This document shows positions 1 through 46,145 of a stretch of 51,150 nucleotides of DNA, piece by piece. The position numbers and the translations under genes are program-made. A model generated the notes under the pieces. That model made no database searches, had not been told where the DNA came from, and saw only the letters and a list, made by a program, of their open reading frames with translations. Each line of letters opens with the position of its first letter. Positions within the stretch are counted from its first letter, which is position 1. The stretch lies in NCBI GenBank assembly GCA_029288805.1, contig JARIGO010000001.1, positions 1 through 51,150 of the forward strand, written 5' to 3'. The DNA is from Candidatus Nomurabacteria bacterium. GTDB lineage: Bacteria > Patescibacteriota > Minisyncoccia > Phycocordibacterales > UBA9973.

Positions 1-521
<521 letters not shown>

Positions 522-709
522 AAATTGAGATGATGTCTTTACTTCGGTAAAGAATTTGAAACGGTTGATTATGCTTGAGCAATCAAACATACGGTTTTGG
601 TATATGACTTAATATATACTCCTTGTACCAAGGTTATGGTACGAAAATCCATTAGTATGATTCTATAGAGCATATTAATGGTAGACTGAGACAATAGAAA
701 GATGATTTT

Positions 710-4356: not shown

Positions 4357-4384
4357 GAAAAAACACCTTTACAGGTGTTTTTTC
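4357..4384. terminator. Bidirectional intrinsic terminator (nrdA / rnpB)
   Basis: GAAAAAACACCT-TTAC-AGGTGTTTTTTC, a perfect 12-bp stem between convergent genes. Confidence 0.85.
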
Positions 4385-4389
4385 ATTAT

Positions 4390-4658
4390 GTTGTACTCGT
4401 AAGCCGAATTCTGTTTTAGTGATCATTTATCTGTGATGCTTGTTACCAAGCACCTATAGCAGCACTTCCTTCGATTGCTCTCGGGACACGGCCTTGCACA
4501 CGGATAGACATTTAGCCGTTTCACTCCCACTAAAGGGATTCGTCACTGTTCGCAGTCCTATGCTTGCGCACGATGGGCATTACCCACTATCTTTTCGCTT
4601 TTTAACGAAGTGTGTTCGGACTTTCCTCTGCATGAATGCAGCGATCATTCGGTACAAC
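4390..4658 (-). ncRNA. rnpB: RNase P RNA, compact (about 269 nt)
   Basis: Minus strand reads GAGGAAAGUCCGAAC near the 5' end and AAAACAGAAUUCGGCUUAC near the 3' end. P1 is GUUGUAC/GUACAAC, P3 is CUGC/GCAG, and the P18-like hairpin is GGUGCUUG-GUAA-CAAGCAUC. Promoter TTGTGC (4687-4692)...TATACT (4665-4670). Confidence 0.93.
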
Positions 4659-4701
4659 AAGGCTAGTATACGGATATTATGAGATAGCACAAGCTTAATT
4701 A

Positions 4702-4891
4702 ATGGCAAATGCATGAAATATTTTGCTGCGGGTTTTCGCTGCGTGGAATAGCTGCAGCTGTTAATGTCCTTACTAAAATATTTCATGCATTTGCCATGCA
4801 AGCTACAAAATAAATAATTTGTCGAGGACCAAAATTGCTGTGCTTATTCAATGCAACGAAAACCCGCAGACATATTATTTATTTTTGTAGC
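4702..4891. repeat. Two inverted copies of a ~95-nt stem-loop module with conserved loop and diverged stems
   Basis: Copy X: perfect 23-bp stem 4702-4724/4775-4797. Copy Y: ~22-bp stem 4802-4823/4869-4891 (1 bulge, 1 mismatch). The loops are reverse-complement homologs (CTGCGGGTTTTCG 4726-4738 vs CGAAAACCCGCAG 4857-4869, with similarity continuing to GTCCT). Confidence 0.85.
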
Positions 4892-30047: not shown

Positions 30048-31109
30048 ATGTCTACAACAAATCAAAGAAAAACCAAAATCGTGGCTACAATTGGCCCAGG
30101 GTCTGAATCAAAAGAAAACTTCACAAAACTCCTTCATGCCGGTGTTGATATCGCCCGCACAAACATGAGTCATGATGACCAAACTATTCATGAGGCTCGC
30201 ATTCACAATATCCGTGCCGCAGCTGCAGAAGCAGGCATGCCTATCAGTATTCTGCTTGACCTTTCAGGTCCAAAGATCCGTATCGGAGACTTTGCCAATG
30301 GTCCGGTAGAACTCATTCCAGGCGCAGAGTTCATTCTTTCTACAAAGGAATGCGAAGGAACAGCTGAAAAGGTATTCTTTAACTTCCCAGAAATTGCAAA
30401 GGAAATGAAGCCAGGTCAGGTGATCATGATCGATGATGGTCGTCGCAAGCTTGTGGTAAACAAGGTAGAAGACGGTGACATCTATACCACAGTGGCTGTT
30501 GGCGGCACTATCAAGGGACGTCGTGGCGTCAACCTTCCAAATGCATTCCTTACTATTTCTGCACTGACAGAAAAGGACAAGAGCGACCTCGAATTCGCTG
30601 TGAAGCAGGGTGTGGACTTTATCGCATTGTCATTCGTGCGTACGGCAAAGGATATCGAAGAACTTCGCGACCTTATCAAGCAGCATGGCGGTAATCAGCC
30701 AATTGTTGCAAAGATTGAGACTCCGGAAGCTATAGAGCGCATTGATGAAATCATCGCCGCAACAGACGCTATCATGGTAGCGCGTGGTGACTTGGCAGTT
30801 GAAATCGGTCATGCCAAAGTGCCTGCTGCTCAGAAAATGATGATCAAAAAGGCCAATGCCGCTGGCAAACCAGTGATCGTTGCAACACAGATGCTTGAAT
30901 CAATGATCAAGGCTCCAGTTCCAACACGTGCTGAAGTGTCTGACATTGCCAACGCTGTTCATGATGGAGCAGACGCAACAATGCTTTCAGAAGAAAGCTC
31001 TCTTGGTGAATTCGCTGTTGAAGCAGTCTCTATGATGGCTGAAGTAATCGTAGAAACTGAAAAAGACCTCGGCTTGAAGCCAGAAGACGCTATTGCGTGG
31101 AAGAAATAA
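30048..31109 (+). CDS. pyk: Pyruvate kinase lacking the C-terminal regulatory domain
   Basis: [54 protein letters not shown]. Stops at 353 aa. Confidence 0.96.
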
Positions 31110-31135: not shown

Positions 31136-31489
31136 ATGAGCATACGCATAAAAAGTACACTTATTGAGCTTACTCCAGCATTGCAAGATTATACAGAAAA
31201 GCGCCTGAAGGGCATTACCAAATACACCGAAGGCGATTGCTTGATCGAAGTAGAGATCGGTAAAAGTACGATGCATCATCGTAACGGTGAGGTGTTCATA
31301 GCAGAAGTGAATGTCACCACTCCGCTTGGCAAACAGTATCGTGCCGTCTCAGAAAAAAACGACCTCTACGAAGCCATTGATGATATGCGCGCAGAGATCA
31401 TTAGGGAAATAAAAGCCGGCAAAGCAAAGAATCAAACCTTGCTCCGTCGTGGTTCTCAAAAAATAAAAAGTCTAATTAAGGGAGTGTAG
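31136..31489 (+). CDS. raiA: Ribosome hibernation factor HPF/RaiA
   Basis: ELTPALQDYTEKRL, AEVNV, DLYEAID. Confidence 0.9.
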   Translation: MSIRIKSTLIELTPALQDYTEKRLKGITKYTEGDCLIEVEIGKSTMHHRNGEVFIAEVNVTTPLGKQYRAVSEKNDLYEAIDDMRAEIIREIKAGKAKNQTLLRRGSQKIKSLIKGV

Positions 31490-32317
31490 GAAATCAGCAT
31501 ACGGCTGACGCTTACCATTCTCAGGAATAACTTCCTCGATAACGAAAGTCTCATTATCATATGAGGCTTTTGTTATTTTTACGGTCAATAATTCACTATG
31601 ACGGGTCGCTGACATATGAACCCATCCTCTGCTGCCAAATGCCCTAAAGACTTTCCATTTCTGCCAGTCAGGCATGTCATCAGTTAGCACACCATCTTGC
31701 TTTGTGTACTTGCGAGTATGGGTATGTTTGTCATGGTCCTGCTCTGTAGGAGTGAGTTCTTTTGAAAGGTATTGTTCGATGTTGTCTGCAAATAAGCGCG
31801 CGCCGAGTTCTGCACTTTTAGCAGTGAGAGCATCTACAGTCATGTCTTTTGCCAAGGGAAATGCCTCTTGGACAACCACTGGTCCATGGTCGACTTGTGC
31901 ATCAAGCTGCATGATACTGACACCTGTTTCAGTATCGTCACTGAGCAATACTGACTCCAATGGAGATGGACCGCGATACAATGGTAGGAGAGAAGGGTGC
32001 AAGTTCAAGACCTTGCCTTCAACGACCTGTAACAAACTGTTTGGTAGGATTTTTCCATATGCCACCACGAAAAAGAAATCCCACGGACCTCTATCATGGA
32101 TGTCTTGCAAGACATCAGTAGTGATTTTTTCTGGAGTGATAACAGGAATATTGTGCTCGTGAGCGAACATCGTTACAGGTGTCTCTACCAGATGCATGCC
32201 GCGGCCTTGTGGGCGAGCGGGAGCTGTGACAATCAGGCTAGGAAGCAAGCCTTTTTCCTTCAAGGATTCCAATGTCAGACGGGCTATGGCTGGTGTTCCG
32301 AAAAATACGTATTTCAT
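31472..32317 (-). CDS. fmt: Methionyl-tRNA formyltransferase
   Basis: VFFGTP, VVAYGKILP, NLHPSLLPLYRGPSP, TGVSIMQLDAQVDHGP. Confidence 0.95.
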   Translation of the reverse strand: MKYVFFGTPAIARLTLESLKEKGLLPSLIVTAPARPQGRGMHLVETPVTMFAHEHNIPVITPEKITTDVLQDIHDRGPWDFFFVVAYGKILPNSLLQVVEGKVLNLHPSLLPLYRGPSPLESVLLSDDTETGVSIMQLDAQVDHGPVVVQEAFPLAKDMTVDALTAKSAELGARLFADNIEQYLSKELTPTEQDHDKHTHTRKYTKQDGVLTDDMPDWQKWKVFRAFGSRGWVHMSATRHSELLTVKITKASYDNETFVIEEVIPENGKRQPYADFLHSLN

Positions 32318-32360
32318 GAGAATAATATAGCATATAGAAGGCCGTCCATATTGTTCCTGT

Positions 32361-32652
32361 CGCTAAAGGCTGCGCTGAAGATAGCAAAAACATCATAATA
32401 TATACCTTTGGCACCCACGCTGCGCACATGCTGAAATATGGCTTGCTCGCCCCGCCACATTTCAGCATGCGTCTCCGCCCAGCTCGCCACTTAGCGTGTC
32501 TGCATGTGGTGTTGGGGTTTGGCGTTTTTCAGCTCGCACATTAGAACAGGAACACGAACACCCATCCCGCAAGGCCATGCGATGGCGGAGCCTGTGAAGA
32601 CAGAATCAGAGGCTCGCCGATGACTTCTGGCTTTACAGCGCAGCCTTTAGCG
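32361..32652 (-). mobile_element. 292-bp structured element with 17-bp terminal inverted repeats (MITE-like or ncRNA) between def and fmt
   Basis: CGCTAAAGGCTGCGCTG (32361-32377) / CAGCGCAGCCTTTAGCG (32636-32652) perfect IR. Several nested internal stems. No convincing ORF and no clear target-site duplication. Confidence 0.6.
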
Positions 32653-32667
32653 GGAAGTTATTTTTTG

Positions 32668-33156
32668 CTACTTTCCTGGTGGAAGATCTTCTACGTTTTT
32701 CGCAGTGTCAATAAATAGAATGCCGTTCAAGTGGTCGGTTTCGTGCTGAAAGATTTGTGCAAGCAAGCCGCGGCCGCTCATGACAAATTCGTTGCCATCG
32801 CCATTTAATGCGCGAACAGTAGCAGTAGTAGCGCGCTTCACGTCACCGTACTTCCAACGCACTGACAAGCATCCTTCCTGCATCATTTCCTTTTTCTTAC
32901 CAAGGCGAATAATCTCAGGATTGATAAATACCAAGTCGTCCTCAAACTTCTTGCTTACTTTTTTTGCTACAACGAACATGCGCAATGACTCACCAACTTG
33001 TGGCGCGGCAATGGCAACGGCATCATCTTCGCGATCAATAGCAGCTTTCATATCTGCGATCAACGACTGAATTTTTTTTGTGCCAATATCAGAAACAGGA
33101 ACCGGTTGCGCAGTGCGACGCAGAACCTGGTCAGGCATTTGAACGATAGTTTTCAT
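32668..33156 (-). CDS. def: Peptide deformylase
   Basis: AIAAPQVG, QEGCLSV, QHETDHLNG. Confidence 0.97.
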   Translation of the reverse strand: MKTIVQMPDQVLRRTAQPVPVSDIGTKKIQSLIADMKAAIDREDDAVAIAAPQVGESLRMFVVAKKVSKKFEDDLVFINPEIIRLGKKKEMMQEGCLSVRWKYGDVKRATTATVRALNGDGNEFVMSGRGLLAQIFQHETDHLNGILFIDTAKNVEDLPPGK

Positions 33157-35080: not shown

Positions 35081-35644
35081 ATGATTATCGTGATCGGGCT
35101 TGGAAACCCTGGAAAAGCCCATGCAGGGCAGCGACATAATATTGGTTGGACAGTACTTGATGCGCTAGCTGCAAAAGAGGGGTTACATTTTAATGAGAGA
35201 AAACTCTTTCATGCTTCCATTGCTCAATTTGGGGAGCTGATGCTCGTGAAGCCTGATACGTTTATGAATGAATCTGGTATTGCCGCACGACAACTGGTAC
35301 GAAATTATGATGCGCCTATCGTAGTTGTATATGATGACATCAGCATCAATGTTGGTGAAATAAAAATTTCCTTTGGAAGAGGGGATGGAGGACACAATGG
35401 AGTGACCTCTACGATTGCGCATCTTGGCACCAAGGATTTCTTGCGCATTCGCATCGGCATTCGTCCGGTTCATGAAGAGCTACTGCCACGCATCGCCCCG
35501 CCGCACGGTTTTGAAAGCTTCATGCTTTCCAACTTCGCTCCATTTGAAACCGATCTTCGAGACAAGGCTATAGACAAAGCTATCGAAATCATCGAACAGC
35601 TACCGTTTAAAACAAAGGAAGAACTAATGACACAGTACAATTAA
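35081..35644 (+). CDS. pth: Peptidyl-tRNA hydrolase
   Basis: IGLGNPG, RHNIG, KPDTFMNESG, GGHNG, LRIRIGI. Confidence 0.96.
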   Translation: MIIVIGLGNPGKAHAGQRHNIGWTVLDALAAKEGLHFNERKLFHASIAQFGELMLVKPDTFMNESGIAARQLVRNYDAPIVVVYDDISINVGEIKISFGRGDGGHNGVTSTIAHLGTKDFLRIRIGIRPVHEELLPRIAPPHGFESFMLSNFAPFETDLRDKAIDKAIEIIEQLPFKTKEELMTQYN

Positions 35645-35645
35645 G

Positions 35646-35669
35646 TATCTAGGAATTTCCTAGATAAAT
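35646..35669. repeat. REP-like palindrome, left of RAYT
   Basis: TATCTAGGA-ATT-TCCTAGATA. CTAGGAATTTCCTAGATAAAT (35649-35669) is identical to 36369-36389. Confidence 0.85.
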
Positions 35670-35709
35670 CTTTAAATAAAATTGAGCGCTCTTTTTGTAT
35701 AGTCACCAT

Positions 35710-36372
35710 ATGATGGCTTTACGAAAAATATCCTTTGCAGAAGGTGAGTATTATCATATTTATAGTCGCGGTAACAGCAAACAAAAAATTTTTCACGATG
35801 CTGCTGATTATCAGAGATTTATGATGTTGCTGTATGCCTGTAATCAAGAAAACGCTTTCAAGATCAACAATCTTCCAAAGGGTAAAAATATCTACGATAT
35901 TCAGATGGGAAAACGCATAACCTCATTAGGGACTTATTGTTTAATGCCCAATCATTTTCACCTTCTAGTTAAAGAGACGATGAGTGATGGAATTACCATT
36001 TTTATGAGAAAAGTTATGACTGCCTACGTTATGTATTACAATAAAAAATATAAACGAACCGGTAAGCTGTTTGAAGGACCGTTTATAGCAGAACATATTA
36101 CTGAAGATCGATATTTAAAATACCTATTTGCATATATTCATTTGAACCCAATAAAGCTTATCGATACCCAATGGAAGGAAAATGGTCTAAAAGATGTCTG
36201 TTCTGCCAAACGTTTTTTATCTTCGTATAAGTACTCAAGTTTTTTAACATATATTGAAATTCAACGGCCAGAAAACAAAATTATTACCCTCTCAGATTTT
36301 CCACCCTATTTTTCAAAAATAGGGGATATGTGGAAAGAGATAAACTCATGGCTTAATTATAAAATTAGCTAG
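35710..36372 (+). mobile_element. REP-associated tyrosine transposase (RAYT / Y1 HUH transposase)
   Basis: YYHIYSRG, YCLMPNHFHLL (HUH), YNKKYKRTGKLF, AYIHLNP, YSS. Start ATG 35710, 6 nt after TATAGT. Confidence 0.9.
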
Positions 36373-36389
36373 GAATTTCCTAGATAAAT
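36369..36389. repeat. REP-like palindrome, right of RAYT
   Basis: 21-nt direct repeat of the left copy, overlapping the RAYT stop codon. Confidence 0.85.
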
Positions 36390-37013: not shown

Positions 37014-37045
37014 AAAAGGCCTTCATCATACGATGAAGGCCTTTT
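37014..37045. terminator. Bidirectional intrinsic terminator
   Basis: AAAAGGCCTTCATC-ATAC-GATGAAGGCCTTTT. Confidence 0.9.
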
Positions 37046-37055
37046 TTAGTTCTGC

Positions 37056-38165
37056 TTATTCAGCTGCTTTTTCTCCCGTATCTTCAACTTTCTGTTCACC
37101 GTAGACAAGAGTCATACGCTGTTCTTTTGGTTCGAAGAGAGTAACAGTGAATGGGTATGTTCGTCCGAGCTGAAGGGCTTCGCGAAGCTTTTCTTCAGTG
37201 CCGAATGTTGAGTGGTGGACAAGTCCAGCCACGCCTTCCTTGATGGAAACCAATGCGCCGTGCTTGTTGTATTTGATTACAACACCCTTAACAACATCGC
37301 CTTTCTTCAAAGTACTTTCGAAGGCCTTCCAAGGGTTGTCTTTCAACGCCTTGATAGAAAGTGAAATCTTACCGTCTTTGATGTCGATAATCTTTGCACG
37401 AACCTTGTCCTTCAATTTGAACATTGAGCGAGGATCTTCAACAAGTCCCCAGTCGAGTTCTGAGATGTGAACCAATCCTTCAAGACCGTCTTCGATCTTC
37501 AAGAACACACCGAAATCAACGATACCGGTTACTTCACAATCAAGCTCATCGCCAACTGCGTACTTACTGATAACTTCCTGACGCTCTTCAGGGCTCCCAT
37601 CTTTTTCAGAGAAGATAAGCTTACCGTCCTTTGGATTTGCAGAGATCATTGTCACTGCAAGCTTAGTACCGATAAGTTTCTTAAGTTCTGAAAGGATCTT
37701 GTCCTTGTCACTGTCTTCTACGCGAGGATAGTGTTCAGGCTTGAGCTGTGATGCTGGCAAGAAACCAGATACACCCTGCCAGTCAATAATAAGACCACCT
37801 TTGTTTGCATCCTTGATAGTAAGGTCAAACATAGTCTTAGACTTGATAGCAATGTCTGCTTCGTTCCAGATCAACGCCTGCTTTGCTTCCTTCAATGAAA
37901 GCTCAACATAGCCGTCTTCATTTTCAACGTCAACGACTTTTGCCTTGATGATGTCACCGATATTGGTCTTACGGATCAAGTCACGTGCCGCGATAAATTC
38001 GCGACCGTAAATGATACCTGTACCAAATGGCTTAAGGTCTACGTAAATAGCCGCTTTATCAACAGCGATTACTGGACCTTCAACGATTTCATCAAGCTGA
38101 GCACGATGAGGTTCGTTATTTGTGTCTTCTGTTGCAGTTGCAACCTTTGTTTCTTCTTCGTTCAT
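37056..38165 (-). CDS. rpsA: 30S ribosomal protein S1 (about four S1 repeats)
   Basis: Repeated S1 motifs (GFLPASQL, FGVFLKIEDGLEGLVHISEL, KISLSIK, GALV...GLVH). Start MNEEET at 38165. Confidence 0.92.
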   Translation of the reverse strand: MNEEETKVATATEDTNNEPHRAQLDEIVEGPVIAVDKAAIYVDLKPFGTGIIYGREFIAARDLIRKTNIGDIIKAKVVDVENEDGYVELSLKEAKQALIWNEADIAIKSKTMFDLTIKDANKGGLIIDWQGVSGFLPASQLKPEHYPRVEDSDKDKILSELKKLIGTKLAVTMISANPKDGKLIFSEKDGSPEERQEVISKYAVGDELDCEVTGIVDFGVFLKIEDGLEGLVHISELDWGLVEDPRSMFKLKDKVRAKIIDIKDGKISLSIKALKDNPWKAFESTLKKGDVVKGVVIKYNKHGALVSIKEGVAGLVHHSTFGTEEKLREALQLGRTYPFTVTLFEPKEQRMTLVYGEQKVEDTGEKAAE

Positions 38166-39218: not shown

Positions 39219-41678
39219 ATGGCTAAAAAAGATACAGCCGCACAGGCAGTCCCAACAGAACCGCGTCAAAGCGTTATAGCGGTTAATATCGTAAAGGAAA
39301 TGCGTGAGTCTTTTATTGACTATGCCATGTCAGTTATTACTGACCGTGCGCTTCCTGATGTTCGTGACGGTTTGAAACCAGTGCACCGACGTATTTTGTA
39401 TTCAATGTATGAAAACGGTCTCACTGCTACCGCAAAGTTTCGTAAGAGTGCAACCGTAGTCGGTGATGTGCTTGGTAAGTATCACCCTCATGGTGATAGT
39501 TCTGTGTATGAAGCCATGGTAAAAATGGCGCAGGATTTCTCAATGCGCTATCCGTTGATCCAGGGTCAGGGTAACTTCGGTTCCATTGACGGAGACCCGG
39601 CTGCTGCGATGCGTTACACCGAGGCTCGCATGTCTAAGATCACTACTGAGCTTTTGCGCGATCTCGAAAAAGACACTGTAGACTTCCGTCCAAACTATGA
39701 CGCCAGTCGCAAGGAGCCATCAGTACTTCCTGCTGCCGTACCAAACCTATTGCTTAACGGTACGCTTGGTATTGCCGTGGGTATGGCAACCAATATTCCT
39801 CCACACAACCTCGGAGAAATCATCGATGCCTGTCTTCATCTTATAGAGAACGATAATGCTACGAATGAAGACCTCGCTGAAATTGTGCAAGGTCCGGATT
39901 TCCCAACAGGAGGTTTGGCATTTAACAAAGCAGATATTTTGCATGCTTCTTCTACTGGACGTGGAGGAGTGGTGTGTCGTGGTGAAGCTGAAATTGCAGA
40001 ACTAAAAAACGGCTCATACCAAATCACTGTTACTTCATTGCCATACCAGGTAAACAAGGCAACATTCGTTGAATCAATCGCAAGTTTGGTGCAGGAAAAG
40101 AAGCTGGAAGGCATCAAGGCATTGGACGAGCTTTCTACCAAGGACATGCGCGTGGTTATTACGCTTAAGGCAGGCGTTAATCCGCAAAAGGTCCTCAACT
40201 TTTTATACAAGCATACGCAGCTCGAACAGACATTCCACTACAACATGGTGGCGCTCGTAGATGGTGTACCACAGACACTTTCAATGAAGTCTATTTTGAC
40301 TGCATTCATTGCGCACCGCGAAGTCGTCATTCGTCGTCGTACTGCATTTGACCTGCAGAAGGCAAAAGACCGTGAGCACATTTTGCTTGGTTTGAAGAAG
40401 GCGCTTGATCATATCGATCGCGTTATCACTATCATCCGTGAATCAAAGGATGCTGCTGTTGCAAAGGTAAACTTGATCAAGGAATTTAAGTTCTCTGATT
40501 TGCAAACAACCGCTATTTTGGAAATGCGTTTGCAAAAGCTTGCTGGTCTTGAACGCAAGGCTGTAGAACTCGAACTCAAAGAGAAGCAGGATCTCATTGC
40601 AGAGCTTGAAGCATTGCTTGCAAGTACAAAGAAAATTTTCAAGGTTATCTCTACTGAACTTTCTGAAATCCGTGAGAAGTATGCCGATGAACGCAGAACA
40701 AAGATCGTAAGCAGTGGCAATAAGGTCATTTCCGATGAAGACCTTATTCCAGAAAAGGATTCTGTGTTGGTATTTACTGCTGGTGGCTACGTGAAGCGCA
40801 CTGATCCAACAGAATACAAGATCCAAAAGCGTGGCGGTGTTGGTGTTGTTGATCTTGAAACAAAGGAAGAAGACTTCGTTACTATTTTGCTGACAACTGA
40901 TACGCACAGTGACTTGCTCTTCTTCACCAATCGTGGAAAGGCATATCAGATTAAGATGTATGAGCTTCCAGAAGGAAAGCGTGCTACCAAAGGTAAATCC
41001 ATCATGAACTTCTTGTCACTTGCGGGAGACGAAAAGGTGACATCTATTCTTGCCGTGCCAAAGAAATTGAAAGAGGAAAAAGCATCATTGATGCTCGTAA
41101 CAAAACAGGGAACTGCAAAGAAGATTTCATACGATAGTTTCAAGGATGTTCGTCGCAGCGGTATCATCGCCATTCGTCTTGAAGACAATGATGAGCTTGA
41201 AGCGGTATTGCGCGTACAAAAAGGCAGTAGTGTCATTTTGGCAACGTCACTCGGCCAGTCTATTCGCTTCGATGAGTCAGATATCCGTGAAATGGGACGC
41301 ACCGCTGCAGGTGTTCGTGCCATGAAGCTCGGTAAGGGAGATGTCATCATCGGTGCTGATGTTGTGACAACTGAAGACAATACATTCGTGCTCGCTATGA
41401 GTGCCAGTGGTATCGGAAAGAAAACTGCCATGAGTGAATACAAGATTCAAAAGCGCGGCGGTTCTGGTATCAAGACTACAAAGGTTACTGCCAAAACTGG
41501 TAACCTTATGGTGGGTAAAGTGGTGCAGAACGATATGGAGCTTGTGGCTATGTCAAAGAAAGGCCAAGTCATCCGCGTTGACCTCAACACCGTCCCTTCA
41601 AGTGGCCGCCAAACACAAGGCGTGACCATCATGAAGTTGCGCGCAGGAGATTCTCTCGCATCTGTTACCTGTCTCTAA
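39219..41678 (+). CDS. gyrA: DNA gyrase subunit A
   Basis: [34 protein letters not shown] (catalytic Tyr), GyrA-box QKRGGVG, and beta-pinwheel repeats. Confidence 0.98.
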
Positions 41679-42311: not shown

Positions 42312-43631
42312 ATGAAATTCTCATTCCAAACTATTCTCATCATTGTATTCATCATCGGCTTTGTAGTTGCTGTTGCTATTTTCTCGGGGCTGTTTTCAGG
42401 CTCATCATCAAAAACAACTTCTAGCACCCCAAGTGGCACCGTCGTGGTCTGGGGTATCGAACCAGTGGAAGAAATGCAAAAATACATCGATACTTTTAAT
42501 GATCAAAATTACGGGTACACGCTTTCATACTCATATCACAGTCCGGCAAACTTTTATCAAGACCTTATCACTACGCTCGCTAATGGCCAATCACCAGATC
42601 TTGTACTGATTTCTTCAGAGCAGTATTCTCAGTTGGGAAACAAACTCTACACTATTCCGTTCACCGCATATCCTGAGCGACAGTTTCGTGATGACAACAT
42701 AGACGGCGCACAGCTCTTTCTTACAAGCACGGGAGTGTCCGCCTTGCCATTGGTAGTTGATCCAATGGTGGCGTATTACAACAAGGACTTACTTGCTGCC
42801 AAAAATTTCGTAACAGTACCGACAACATGGGACAATCTCCAAGCCGCAGTGCCAATTCTTACAAAGAAGGATAGCAAGAACCAACTTACTCAGAGCACCA
42901 TTGCTCTTGGTGAAGCTGATAACATTCTCCATGCTCGAGACATTCTTTCTACATTGTTCCTGCAAACCGGTAACAGTATCGTTTCGTATGACGCAAGTAC
43001 TCAGTCCAATACAGTTAAGCTTGCCAATAGTAGCGCTTCAGCAGAAGCAGGAGATGCTTTGCCATCAGTACAGGCGCTGGATTTTTATACTAGTTTCTCG
43101 AACCCTACCAGCAGTTCATACAGTTGGAACAGCGCGTTGCCGGAAAGCTTGCAGAATTTCCTAGCGGGGAATTCAGCGTTTTATCTTGGGCGCGCCAGTG
43201 AGCTTTTCACCATACAGCAGCAAAATCCAAACCTGAACTTTGATGTCACGCAAATGTTCCAAAGCAGTTCCGCTACTCGACCGATTACATTCGGCTCATT
43301 CCTTGCTGTCGGCATCATGGCCAAGGCTCCGAATGCCGCAGCGGCAAATGCCGCAGCCTTGGAAATGGCCAGTGCCACTAACATCGATGCATTATCAAAG
43401 ACGTTGTCATTGCCGCCGGTACGACGCGATCTCTTGCAGGTGACTCAGAGTAATCCCTACGTTACTGTTTTCTTCCAAGCAGCATTGTCATCATTCGCGT
43501 GGGCTGATCCCAATCCAGCTAGTACCAACCAGATATTCCGTGATATGATTAATAACGTAAACAGTAACACTACTGACACGCAAACAGCCATTTATGATGC
43601 GACGCAAGCACTTCAATCAAGCATTCAGTAA
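42312..43631 (+). CDS. Membrane-anchored extracellular solute-binding protein (sugar-binding family)
   Basis: N-terminal TM, VVVWG, PDLVLI, PLVVDPMVAYYNKDLL, F..G.SAFYLG. Confidence 0.8.
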   Translation: MKFSFQTILIIVFIIGFVVAVAIFSGLFSGSSSKTTSSTPSGTVVVWGIEPVEEMQKYIDTFNDQNYGYTLSYSYHSPANFYQDLITTLANGQSPDLVLISSEQYSQLGNKLYTIPFTAYPERQFRDDNIDGAQLFLTSTGVSALPLVVDPMVAYYNKDLLAAKNFVTVPTTWDNLQAAVPILTKKDSKNQLTQSTIALGEADNILHARDILSTLFLQTGNSIVSYDASTQSNTVKLANSSASAEAGDALPSVQALDFYTSFSNPTSSSYSWNSALPESLQNFLAGNSAFYLGRASELFTIQQQNPNLNFDVTQMFQSSSATRPITFGSFLAVGIMAKAPNAAAANAAALEMASATNIDALSKTLSLPPVRRDLLQVTQSNPYVTVFFQAALSSFAWADPNPASTNQIFRDMINNVNSNTTDTQTAIYDATQALQSSIQ

Positions 43632-43992
43632 GCTCGTAGCATACGGCGCTGTTTGCTCACTACTTTTTGTACAAGCTGCCAACGCTCAAGCTTCGGGTCT
43701 TATTCCGTGTGATGGCGATGACTGCAGCCTCAACTCCGTCATGCAGCTGATCAATACGCTCATGAACTTCTTTTTTAAAACATTGCTCCTGCCGTTGTTC
43801 GTATTTATGGTCCTGTATCTTGGATACAGCTATATCACTGCCCAGGGCAAGCCCGGCATGCACGCCAAGCTCGGCAGCATGGCAAAGCATATGGTTGGGG
43901 GATTGGTGCTGATGCTCTGCGCATGGCTTATTGTTAAGACCATACTCGTTATCCTCGGATATAACGATACCTTCGGGTTTTTTAATAGTTAA
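43594..43992 (+). CDS. TrbC/VirB2-like pilin 1
   Basis: Signal, LIPCDGDDC, two TMs, GLVLMLCAWLIVKTI. Confidence 0.75.
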   Translation: MMRRKHFNQAFSKLVAYGAVCSLLFVQAANAQASGLIPCDGDDCSLNSVMQLINTLMNFFFKTLLLPLFVFMVLYLGYSYITAQGKPGMHAKLGSMAKHMVGGLVLMLCAWLIVKTILVILGYNDTFGFFNS

Positions 43993-44003
43993 TACGTTAT
44001 ACT

Positions 44004-44480
44004 ATGAAGGTCATGAGAAAATCATTTTTGGTATTAATCGCACTGTTTTTTGTACTCGGTACCAGTCTGCCTGCGTCATTAGCGTACGGAGACAGTTCTG
44101 CTTCACCATTAAATGGCAACCCTACTAATCCTTCCACAGCTTCACCATTAAACGGTACGGGCAACGCTGCTACTCAGCAACCTGCTGGCCAGCCTTTGAA
44201 CATCCATCTCACCAATCCACTTGCCGGATCAGGTGTTACTGACATTCCTTCAGCAGTAAACAAGATCCTGACGGTAGTCATTAAGATTGCATTACCACTC
44301 ATCATCATTATGTTCATCTGGTCAGGTATTACCTTCATCTTTGCACGTGGTAATCCTAAGAAACTTGAGGATGCAAAGAGAATGTTCCTCTATACCATTA
44401 TCGGTACGTTGCTCATTCTCGGAGCATGGACCATTACTAACGCCCTTATCGGAACAGTTAATTCAATCATCACCCCATAA
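44004..44480 (+). CDS. TrbC/VirB2-like pilin 2 (start possibly 44013)
   Basis: LTNPL, IWSGITFIFARGNPKKLEDAK, IIGTLLILGAWTI. Confidence 0.85.
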   Translation: MKVMRKSFLVLIALFFVLGTSLPASLAYGDSSASPLNGNPTNPSTASPLNGTGNAATQQPAGQPLNIHLTNPLAGSGVTDIPSAVNKILTVVIKIALPLIIIMFIWSGITFIFARGNPKKLEDAKRMFLYTIIGTLLILGAWTITNALIGTVNSIITP

Positions 44481-44481
44481 T

Positions 44482-45324
44482 ATGAAATATTTTTTCGCCA
44501 CACTTACTTCCTTTGCATTGTTGTTCTCAGCTGCCATCGCTCATGCTGATGACATAAATTACACACCACCGACTGCCAGTCAGGTTATTCAGCAGTCTGA
44601 CTGTTCAGCAACCAATGTCGTTACCTCAACCTGTTATGAACGAATGTGTACCGGCCAATCAAATGAAGACTCTGTATCCTGTAACAATTTTGCCTCAACA
44701 TGGACCTCATCAAACAATCCAGACAACCCTCAGTGCTACAGTATCGGACCAACCAATGAGGATCAGTGCTGTCCAAACGGAGAAAGCGACTCACCGATAT
44801 GCGCAGCGTATGATACATACACTGATCGCGACGCTACAACTGAGGCGTACAGCAGAACCGTCATAGGTCAGGTGGGAAGTGGTACTCAAAATACCAACCC
44901 TGTAAATAATGCGTACTCTAATGGAGAGGGTAATCCATCATTAACCATTCCTACATACGATGCCGCTGCAGCAACGTCATGTTCCAACGTGAAGTTTACC
45001 AACCTTCTTAATATTGCGATCTGGGCGAAATGCATCATCGGTGTCATTATCATACCGGGCATATTCACGCTTGCCTTCGTAGTGTTCCTGTGGGGAGTAT
45101 TCAAGTTTATTCGTGCTTCAGAGGAAAAGGACAAGCAAGCAGGGAAGCAGTTCATTTATATGGGGCTCATCGGGCTATTTATCATGGTGGCCGTATGGGG
45201 CATTATCAACATTGCAATCAAAACCCTCGGTTTCAACTCGGTGGTACCGACCCTGCAGACCGACTATCTCAGCCCAAGTAGTGCCACCGCTATGCCTACT
45301 AGTACCTCTACCGGCACCAATTAA
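44482..45324 (+). CDS. TrbC/VirB2-like pilin 3 with Cys-rich N-terminal extension
   Basis: Signal AHA-D, 8-Cys domain, then VFLWGVFKFI...GLIGLFIMVAVWGII. Confidence 0.8.
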   Translation: MKYFFATLTSFALLFSAAIAHADDINYTPPTASQVIQQSDCSATNVVTSTCYERMCTGQSNEDSVSCNNFASTWTSSNNPDNPQCYSIGPTNEDQCCPNGESDSPICAAYDTYTDRDATTEAYSRTVIGQVGSGTQNTNPVNNAYSNGEGNPSLTIPTYDAAAATSCSNVKFTNLLNIAIWAKCIIGVIIIPGIFTLAFVVFLWGVFKFIRASEEKDKQAGKQFIYMGLIGLFIMVAVWGIINIAIKTLGFNSVVPTLQTDYLSPSSATAMPTSTSTGTN

Positions 45325-45399
45325 TTAACAGTTGTTTTGGATAGTTCCGTGATATACTAAAATTACCTGTATATTAACCAGGAAGTTAAATAATTAATT

Positions 45400-45801
45400 A
45401 TGAAAAAAATTTTTACTGTTAGTACACTTTCAGCGCTGCTCTTGCCAGCATTTGCATTTGCGCAAGATTTTACATACGTAAACTCATGGCTTACAGAAGG
45501 TTTGACCTTGCTACGTTTGGCGATCACTGTTATCACCATTTTGATGACCGTGTACTTCTTGTACAACGTGTTGCGCTTTATCATGAACAAGGATCCAGCA
45601 AAGTCAGCCGATCTTCGCAAGATTATGATCAATGGCTTGATCGGTCTCTTTATCTCAGTTGCTGTGTGGGGCATCATTGGTCTCGCAAGTCGCGTCACTG
45701 GTGTTAACAACAACGCATCACCTAATATCACTTGCCCTCCTGGACTTGATTACAATACTACCACTGGTACTTGCGGAACTAATGGGGGTACATTGCGCTA
45801 A
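45400..45801 (+). CDS. TrbC/VirB2-like pilin 4
   Basis: Signal AFA-Q, GLIGLFISVAVWGII, C-terminal C-x9-C. Confidence 0.85.
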   Translation: MKKIFTVSTLSALLLPAFAFAQDFTYVNSWLTEGLTLLRLAITVITILMTVYFLYNVLRFIMNKDPAKSADLRKIMINGLIGLFISVAVWGIIGLASRVTGVNNNASPNITCPPGLDYNTTTGTCGTNGGTLR

Positions 45802-45815
45802 TTACACTGTTTGAA

Positions 45816-46145
45816 ATGTTTGCCTACGCGGATGGATTTGACAAAGTATTAAACAGGATAAATGCCAACATCATTAACCCTGTTATTGAGTTTGCCTTTA
45901 TCATTGCTACTGTGGTTTTCCTTTGGGGAGTCTTCCAGTTCATTCGTAATGCTGGGGATGAAACCAAGCGTCAGGAAGGGAAAGATCATATCCTCTGGGG
46001 CATCGTGGGATTTCTCATTATGTTCGGTGTCTATGGCATCATCAACATACTGGCCAATACTATCGATGTCAGTGGCTTGACTCTTAAACAAGGCCAGCAA
46101 ACGTTTACTCCTCCTCCTATACAAAGTATTACGGTGCCGAAATAA
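45816..46145 (+). CDS. TrbC/VirB2-like pilin 5
   Basis: VFLWGVFQFI...GKDHILWGIVGFLIMFGVYGII. Confidence 0.85.
   Translation: MFAYADGFDKVLNRINANIINPVIEFAFIIATVVFLWGVFQFIRNAGDETKRQEGKDHILWGIVGFLIMFGVYGIINILANTIDVSGLTLKQGQQTFTPPPIQSITVPK

Follow-up and report, generated by a model that had tools for sequence, protein, structure and literature searches.

The window analyzed here, by which we mean the whole stretch of 51,150 nt, is a piece of a compact genome that carries housekeeping genes separated by mostly short spacers, together with a reduced RNase P RNA gene and the 3′ end of a 16S rRNA gene. On its minus strand, lepB, hisS, and def lie in series with overlaps or a 1-nt gap, def being the last of the three, and a spacer of 350 nt separates def from fmt. 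Most of this spacer is occupied by a discrete non-coding element of 292 bp at positions 32361–32652, which has a perfect 17/17 inverted repeat at its two ends and lies 15 nt from the def stop codon. The features of the locus are given below, where X3 denotes a partial, diverged copy of the element from a public sequencing run.

31472–32317, minus strand: fmt, methionyl-tRNA formyltransferase, 281 aa (Formyl_trans_N, 3.5e-30, Pfam; TIGR00460, 1e-49, NCBIfam)
32318–32360, minus strand: fmt-side flank of 43 nt, probable fmt promoter (extended −10 word and conserved 12-mer)
32361–32652, no strand: the element, as delimited by its terminal repeats, GC, fold, and the end of the X3 copy at 32652
32361–32377, plus strand: left terminal arm CGCTAAAGGCTGCGCTG, complementary to the right arm at 17/17 positions
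32378–32410, adjoining the left arm on its inner side: sole A+T-rich part of the core (24% GC)
32386–32378, minus strand: extended −10-like word TGCTATCTT, facing fmt
32425–32471: hairpin A, an 18-bp helix with 16-nt arms at 94%
32473–32479 and 32584–32590: long-range stem CTCCGCC / GGCGGAG, used in the minimum-energy fold of the minus strand, with the GGCGGAG half unchanged in X3
32480–32496, plus strand: third arm-like copy CAGC-N7-TTAGCG, in the orientation of the right arm
32530–32546, plus strand: degenerate fourth arm-like repeat CAGCTCGCACATTAGAA (family D1, 71% to 32480–32496; family D3, 80% over 15 nt to 32480–32494)
32562–32585: variable hairpin, kept in X3 despite about 10 substitutions in 24 nt
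32588–32615: hairpin GAGCCTGTGA / TCAGAGGCTC, in which C32591T of X3 gives a T-G wobble on the plus strand
32592–32645: invariant block of 54 nt, identical in the window and X3, which runs into the right arm (44 nt adjoin the arm)
32636–32652, plus strand: right terminal arm CAGCGCAGCCTTTAGCG, with 32636–32645 unchanged in X3
32668–33156, minus strand: def, peptide deformylase, 162 aa (Pfam, NCBIfam)
35695–36372: weak RAYT/IS200-like Y1 ORF, 3 kb from the element (37 bits against an NCBIfam cut-off of 80)

The terminal arms are 258 nt apart and constitute the sole long-range, G+C-rich, perfect inverted repeat of the window. The 17-mer arm word has no other site in the 51-kb window with 3 mismatches allowed (chance expectation, 0.08), and the exact pattern CAGCN7TTAGCG is found at 3 sites in the 51 kb, namely, the two arms and the copy at 32480–32496, all of them within the element. 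A direct repeat, CAGCTCGCCACTTAG / CAGCTCGCACATTAG, lies at 32480 and 32530, and a blastn search of the element against the window itself detected no second copy in the 51 kb. At 54.5%, the GC content of the element exceeds that of the window (43.8%) and of most other spacers (24–45%), and it reaches 57% once the 33-nt A+T-rich stretch at the left end is excluded, with the tRNAs of the window at 51–61%. A GC content 11 points above that of the genome is compatible with a foreign origin. The flanking sequences, which end in CCTGT on the left and begin with GGAAG on the right, share nothing, and there is therefore no unambiguous target-site duplication; a 2-bp palindromic duplication might nevertheless be present in the CG at the outer end of each arm, where it would be indistinguishable from the repeat. 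The perfect terminal repeat, the nested stems, the internal direct repeat, the GC richness relative to other intergenic DNA, and the lack of a clear target-site duplication had all been pointed out in a first-pass annotation of this DNA, and each of these observations holds, the stems and repeats lying exactly where that annotation had placed them.

The interior of the element carries little that resembles a gene or its signals. The extended −10-like word just inside the left arm provides no evidence of a promoter, as one such word in 584 nt does not exceed the chance expectation (118 in the window), and a scan for sigma-70-type promoters and intrinsic terminators found neither in or beside the element on either strand. 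The one terminator-like match, at 32235–32252 on the plus strand, is inside fmt and outside the element, and a canonical intrinsic terminator after def was rejected on the same negative scan. Open reading frames within the element are limited to 21–39 aa, none with a coding-like substitution pattern, and a small protein gene was likewise discarded because the substitutions in X3 fall mainly at codon positions 1 and 2 (manual count). ARAGORN detected no tRNA or tmRNA in the element. As a separate observation on its edges, TTTTTGCTACTTT (32662–32675, plus strand), shortly beyond the right arm, agrees at 12 of 14 positions with AAGATAGCAAAAA (32377–32390) read as its reverse complement, the latter lying just within the left arm, and each of the two includes a TGCTAnnTT −10-like word.

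The 43 nt that separate the element from fmt probably hold the fmt promoter. This flank contains an extended −10 word, TGCTATATT (32332–32324), followed by N6 and the ATG, as well as a 12-mer (32344–32355) that is conserved in X3, and the fmt start of the nearest relative found, L003, reads TACAAT-N6-ATG with the same geometry. Similar words are common in the window, as a −10-like TAnnnT is located 5–9 nt before the start codon at 19 of 47 gene starts and the extended form TGnTAnnnT at 7 of 47, where we estimate that about 5 and about 0.3, respectively, would be expected by chance. The 16S rRNA 3′ end reads GGATTAACTC, where GGATCACCTCC would be expected; at window positions 505–525 it is GGATTAACTCAAAT, and as it lacks CCTCC, it provides no canonical anti-Shine-Dalgarno sequence. 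The −10-like words at gene starts and the absence of an anti-Shine-Dalgarno sequence suggest that leaderless mRNAs may be widespread in this organism and, judged from the sequence, fmt would be transcribed as a leaderless unit from a start within the 43-nt flank. Given that fmt has a −10 word of its own, the element is probably upstream of the fmt transcript rather than within a def-fmt mRNA, and this promoter-like word would allow an insertion at this point to be tolerated. The encoded Fmt protein is short, the TIGR00460 equivalog aligning residues 2–212 only, with a score below the cut-off.

When metagenomes were scanned with the Fmt protein, 80 loci were recovered. About 70 distant relatives (31–41% identity) have def directly upstream of fmt, with a gap that is absent or at most about 100 nt, an estimate that allows for unaligned C termini. 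The expectation of the first-pass annotation that def and fmt are usually adjacent is borne out by this survey, and the contiguity of the two genes in distant relatives implies that the element is an insertion, one that is both bounded and structured. L003, the only close relative, is syntenic with the window and 72% identical at the nucleotide level across fmt-hpf-pyk. Its contig begins 152 nt before fmt, and these 152 nt are not def, which implies that the lineage as a whole has extra DNA before fmt. The similarity of this DNA to the element is weak (local score, 35; reached by 14 of 500 shuffles). For the core of the L003 segment, at 24–64, the best match in the 51-kb window is the loop and fmt-proximal arm of hairpin A (~32406–32454, same strand; score 34, with the next best in the window at 28), although hairpin A is not conserved in L003 itself.

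The DNA before fmt in L003 has a wider distribution than the element. In its home metagenome, L003:10–92 is present at a 4- to 15-fold depth of the adjacent unique DNA, and the 40-nt core is found with many different flanks and on both strands in groundwater, drinking-water, freshwater, permafrost, and peat metagenomes. Its copies differ by non-triplet indels and are therefore not coding. The 10–92 segment folds as a stem-closed two-hairpin unit, and a search of L003:1–160 against Rfam at E ≤ 10 produced no match. Based on sequence and depth, L003:10–92 may represent either a dispersed repeat or a non-coding motif that is widely conserved. The HExxH motif of def, a universal coding motif, gives the same depth picture as the L003 core, and when contigs carrying the core (L003:24–64) from four metagenomes were compared with the element, the def HExxH motif was the sole match. 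The over-representation and varied flanks of L003:10–92 imply that the site before fmt seems to collect repeat-like elements.

The element itself is almost absent from public data. A 20-mer of the invariant block gave 2 matches of 21–22 nt in 185,579 species genomes, both in unrelated phyla and attributable to chance, while a 24-mer had no match in JGI metagenomes and IMG/VR. By blastn, the spacer matched nothing among plasmids and phages, and the element nothing among the 82 loci that were fetched. No identical proteins are on record for def, fmt, hpf, pyk, or lepB, no run was matched in a sequencing-run search with a 9.9-kb stretch, and the literature search found no mention of the element's sequences or of a def-fmt element. 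Words of the element were found in only two public runs, besides near-identical soil reads, and in the runs that contain the element the depth of the host organism is at trace level. In a scan of the whole window at the gathering threshold, no Rfam family matches the element, and the sole match at E ≤ 10 on 32200–32800, PVT1_3, is spurious (14.5 bits against 45). The element thus matches nothing catalogued in Rfam or among plasmids and phages, and it is real, sharply bounded, and uncatalogued. A folate or ZTP riboswitch serving fmt was also considered and discarded, there being no Rfam match for either.

The X3 copy is informative with respect to both constraint and orientation. It is a single 151-nt contig, the ends of which are not fully readable, and it aligns to 32525–32652 with 84% identity over 128 nt (21 differences), and the match breaks off precisely where the right arm ends on its outer side, at 32652. 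Not one of the differences falls in the 54-nt block at 32592–32645, beside which 13 of 37 neighboring positions differ, and this argues for constraint at the sequence level on this end of the element rather than mere conservation of a helix. The adjacent hairpin at 32562–32585 shows a different pattern, with 7 of 8 pairs kept and two of them doubly compensated (G-C to A-T and C-G to T-A); in a simulation of random substitutions this has p ~0.01, for a hairpin that was chosen post hoc and with two sequences, one of them partial. The compensated hairpin could reflect structural constraint on either RNA or single-stranded DNA.

Past the arm, the 23 nt of X3 (AAACAAACAATATGGACTATGCT) match the left, fmt-side flank of the window at 14 of 17 positions in register, 12 of them consecutive (P ~1.4e-6), whereas only 5 of the 23 match the right flank. 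After a 9-nt gap, the similarity to the fmt-side flank resumes in TATGCT, the start of the fmt −10 word. The right arm of X3 therefore adjoins the fmt-promoter flank, and by this flank orthology, which spans 23 nt of one contig, the core of X3 is inverted relative to fmt. As the two halves of the window's element are not reverse complements of one another, X3 cannot be explained as one reading of a long palindrome; indeed, a single long palindrome or REPIN-like hairpin was rejected when the left half was compared with the reverse complement of the right half, with 299 of 500 shuffles scoring as high. The opposite orientation points to an event at the DNA level, either inversion or mobility. 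The simplest account is a flip between the arms, and the alternative is a second insertion that hit exactly the same base in the opposite orientation. Two contigs from the strain of the window, X1 (32173–32401) and X2 (32536–32686), are in the window orientation at both junctions, at a depth of ~2.

When folded, the element is far more stable than shuffled sequence on both strands. The minus strand reaches −130.8 kcal/mol (z, −5.85) and the plus strand −118.5 kcal/mol (z, −4.90), each better than all 200 shuffles, and a nested GGTGTT / AACACC stem is apparent on direct reading. Hairpin A is unbroken on the minus strand, where 32426/32470 and 32438/32458 form two G-U pairs, and is interrupted on the plus strand by A-C mismatches at these two pairs, just as the first-pass annotation had described. 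The same annotation took this difference as a sign of folding at the RNA level, and here our analysis does not follow it, as the asymmetry amounts to two pairs in one hairpin and the minimum-energy folds contain 9 wobble pairs on the minus strand and 6 on the plus strand. Given that the fold of each strand has wobble pairs of its own, the strand bias is local to a single hairpin, and a general G-U bias was rejected.

A possible agent of mobility was sought within the window. The first-pass annotation had named the RAYT-like gene 3 kb away as one candidate mobilizer, a proposal that our analysis does not support. Its ORF scores 37 bits against a cut-off of 80 and is bracketed by two direct copies of an A+T-rich, 24-nt palindrome of its own, TATCTAGGAATTTCCTAGATAAAT (35643–35669 and 36363–36389), which has no further copy in the window and no similarity to the element ends CGCTAAAGGCTGCGCTG. 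The gene was therefore rejected as a mobilizer because it is flanked by different palindromes. No DDE transposase and no tyrosine or serine recombinase was detected among the ~50 ORFs of the window.

Taken together, the element looks like small mobile or invertible DNA rather than a proven RNA gene, and it most likely belongs to a known kind, the small inverted-repeat foldback DNA elements. More specifically, we tentatively favor a rare, non-autonomous, MITE-like foldback element in which recombination between the repeats has flipped the core, a reading that we hold with somewhat less than even confidence. The perfect and conserved arms, the invariant block, and the third CAGC-N7-TTAGCG copy suggest a transposon end or recombination site, and the insertion at an otherwise closed def-fmt junction, the higher GC, and the change of orientation favor this reading. 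The element would then have settled between the end of the lepB-hisS-def transcription unit and the promoter of fmt. Its constant parts, namely, the 17-bp repeats, the 44 bp by the right repeat, and the third repeat word, would be putative binding sites for a transposase or recombinase encoded elsewhere, while the interior would drift freely provided that folding persists. On this account, the element is or was mobile, and recombination from arm to arm, rather than a second insertion, probably flipped the core at least once. In the orientation of the window, the only transcript to include it would be the def message, as its 3′ tail, where the 17-bp closing helix and the 18-bp hairpin could act as a passive 3′ stabilizer or a barrier to read-through. 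Weighing against the MITE-like reading, there is no unambiguous target duplication and no transposase or recombinase with matching ends in the window, and the compensated hairpin and tRNA-like GC fit a structured RNA at least as well. With one copy in the 51 kb and no further copies of the exact words, the multi-copy status that defines a MITE is unproven.

A structured RNA, either a small-RNA gene or an element of the def 3′ untranslated region, is a less likely competitor. In that case, the fold itself would be selected, the terminal repeat would be a closing helix, and the change of orientation would be a neutral flip of a self-contained gene through the repeats of that helix. The argument for it is built on the folding of both strands beyond any shuffle (z, −5.85 and −4.90), on a GC content of 54.5–57% that resembles that of the tRNAs of the window (51–61%) rather than that of the genome (43.8%), and on the hairpin at 32562–32585, with its 7 of 8 pairs and two double compensations (p ~0.01); an invariant block adjoining a variable hairpin is, moreover, the usual pattern of an RNA family. 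In both lineages, wobbles fall on the strand that has the sense of fmt, namely, 32426/32470 and 32438/32458 on the minus strand of the window and T32591-G and G32571-T on the fmt-sense strand of X3. In addition, the arm-like internal repeats might allow alternative pairings, and the indels of the L003 core together with its two-hairpin fold make a family of RNA motifs at this locus possible. However, the element has no genuine Rfam match at E ≤ 10 and no promoter- or terminator-like site around it on either strand, and the folds of its two strands are of nearly equal quality. The closing helix, which is perfect, has at least 10 nt identical in sequence in X3 and shows no covariation, hairpin A is not kept in L003, and the compensation is seen in two sequences only, one of them partial, in a hairpin picked post hoc. 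Of the alternatives in the first-pass annotation, namely, a MITE that acts as RNA, an excisable RNA element, or a novel ncRNA, the part that stands is the discrete, structured, uncatalogued insertion; the RNA reading is weakly supported and is not the one that we favor, and nothing points to an excisable RNA or to an intron.

Two further explanations appear improbable, the second more so than the first. In a programmed inverton, a distant site-specific recombinase would flip the 258-bp core between the 17-bp repeats and thereby change either read-through into fmt or the promoter activity directed at it, so that the balance between initiator-tRNA formylation and the deformylase would be adjusted. 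The architecture is that of published invertons (fimS, hin, and the Bacteroides capsule promoters; PhaseFinder, DeepInverton, PMC11602134), which are intergenic segments bounded by inverted repeats, of which more than 75% are shorter than 300 bases (PMC11602134), and the element is likewise ~300 bp long, directly upstream of a gene, and present in two orientations relative to one fmt-promoter flank. Its arms are perfectly identical, as recombination would maintain, one arm and the adjacent block are conserved in sequence, a third arm-like site lies inside the core, and recombinases can act from a distance (Mpi of Bacteroides, cited in PMC11602134). Unlike the published cases, though, there is no tyrosine or serine recombinase among the ~50 ORFs around it, the scan detected no promoter-like site or orientation-dependent signal in the core, and the core is G+C-rich and highly base paired rather than a typical promoter segment. 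The opposite orientations come from two diverged lineages, whereas an inverton is defined by both orientations in one population, and all contigs of the window strain are in the window orientation, at very low depth. Furthermore, whichever way the core points, positions ~−44 to −60 of the putative fmt promoter are taken up by an arm, and a flip would alter little nearby. The other explanation, an inert remnant of decayed foreign or rearranged DNA with a repeat and stems that have no present function, is the least probable of all. It would account for the single copy, the absence of a partner gene and of homologs in large collections, and the lack of coding potential. Decaying DNA would not, however, be expected to retain a perfect 17/17 repeat and a 54-nt identical block in sequence that is otherwise 65–75% identical, nor to fold far beyond shuffles, and a compact genome in which most spacers are < 150 nt would rarely keep 292 nt of junk.

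The foldback reading that we favor can be compared with elements known from other bacteria. The Correia/NEMIS elements of Neisseria, the ERIC/IRU elements of enterobacteria, and the RUP elements of pneumococci are RNA-folding MITEs with tens to hundreds of copies per genome. In these families the target duplication is defined (TA in the case of Correia) and a partner insertion sequence is often known, and the elements are co-transcribed with the upstream gene, their hairpin affecting mRNA processing or stability. Like these elements (100–300 bp), the def-fmt element is non-coding, has terminal inverted repeats and a foldback structure, and lies between co-oriented genes in either orientation; unlike them, it is seen once in 51 kb, lacks a clear duplication and a partner, and is nearly absent from public data. 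With REP, BIME, and REPIN sequences, it shares the properties of extragenic palindromic DNA without a clear target duplication and a RAYT-like Y1 gene 3 kb off, but it is 3 times longer than a REPIN, has a branched fold rather than one long hairpin, and is not repeated in the window. The resemblance to 6S, large SRP, raiA, and OLE RNAs lies in the length of ~300 nt, the paired 5′ and 3′ ends, and a G+C-rich branched fold in an A+T-richer genome, whereas its orientation is not fixed relative to its neighbors and it has neither a promoter or terminator nor a covariance-model match.

If the element is a foldback mobile element, it would be a first representative of a family not yet catalogued, from a little-studied soil lineage with small genomes, and it would show that the otherwise universal pairing of def and fmt can be split once fmt has a leaderless promoter. 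If the fold is under selection, it would represent a new RNA of ~290 nt, and a programmed flip would make it a rare case of a switch that controls a core translation gene instead of a surface structure. Leaderless initiation depends centrally on initiator-tRNA formylation, as does tolerance of the deformylase inhibitors that soil actinomycetes make. A programmed DNA switch in this putatively CPR-like bacterium with its reduced genome, with the flip shifting fmt relative to def and making formylation phase-variable, is a rather remote prospect, a shade less probable than the inverton in its general form and a shade more so than the inert remnant; in a variant of it, an invertible cassette would carry the core as a new RNA gene. 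Our data do not allow a choice among these readings, and the value of the element at this point is that of a well-defined, testable locus rather than a discovery.

Several other features of the window are worth recording. The 16S rRNA fragment (window 1–525) has 525 nt for 402 model positions and contains an A+T-rich inverted repeat at 37–57 and 113–133, which, from the sequence, suggests an insertion of ~120 nt in the gene, especially at 37–133. A perfect 23-nt inverted repeat with its halves 50 nt apart, at 4702–4797, adjoins the reduced 277-nt RNase P RNA gene (4384–4660). Two imperfect inverted-repeat pairs link 37037–37159 with 39986–40034, ~2.9 kb apart (29 nt at 83% and 20 nt at 90%), and are located in or beside the 3′ end of rpsA and in gyrA; as the pairs are not colinear, they may be chance matches. 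The pyruvate kinase gene (30048–31109, 353 aa) encodes the barrel domain only, and the region 43594–46145 contains three small paralogous ORFs with T4SS-pilin/TrbC-like domains, beside ORFs without a family match.
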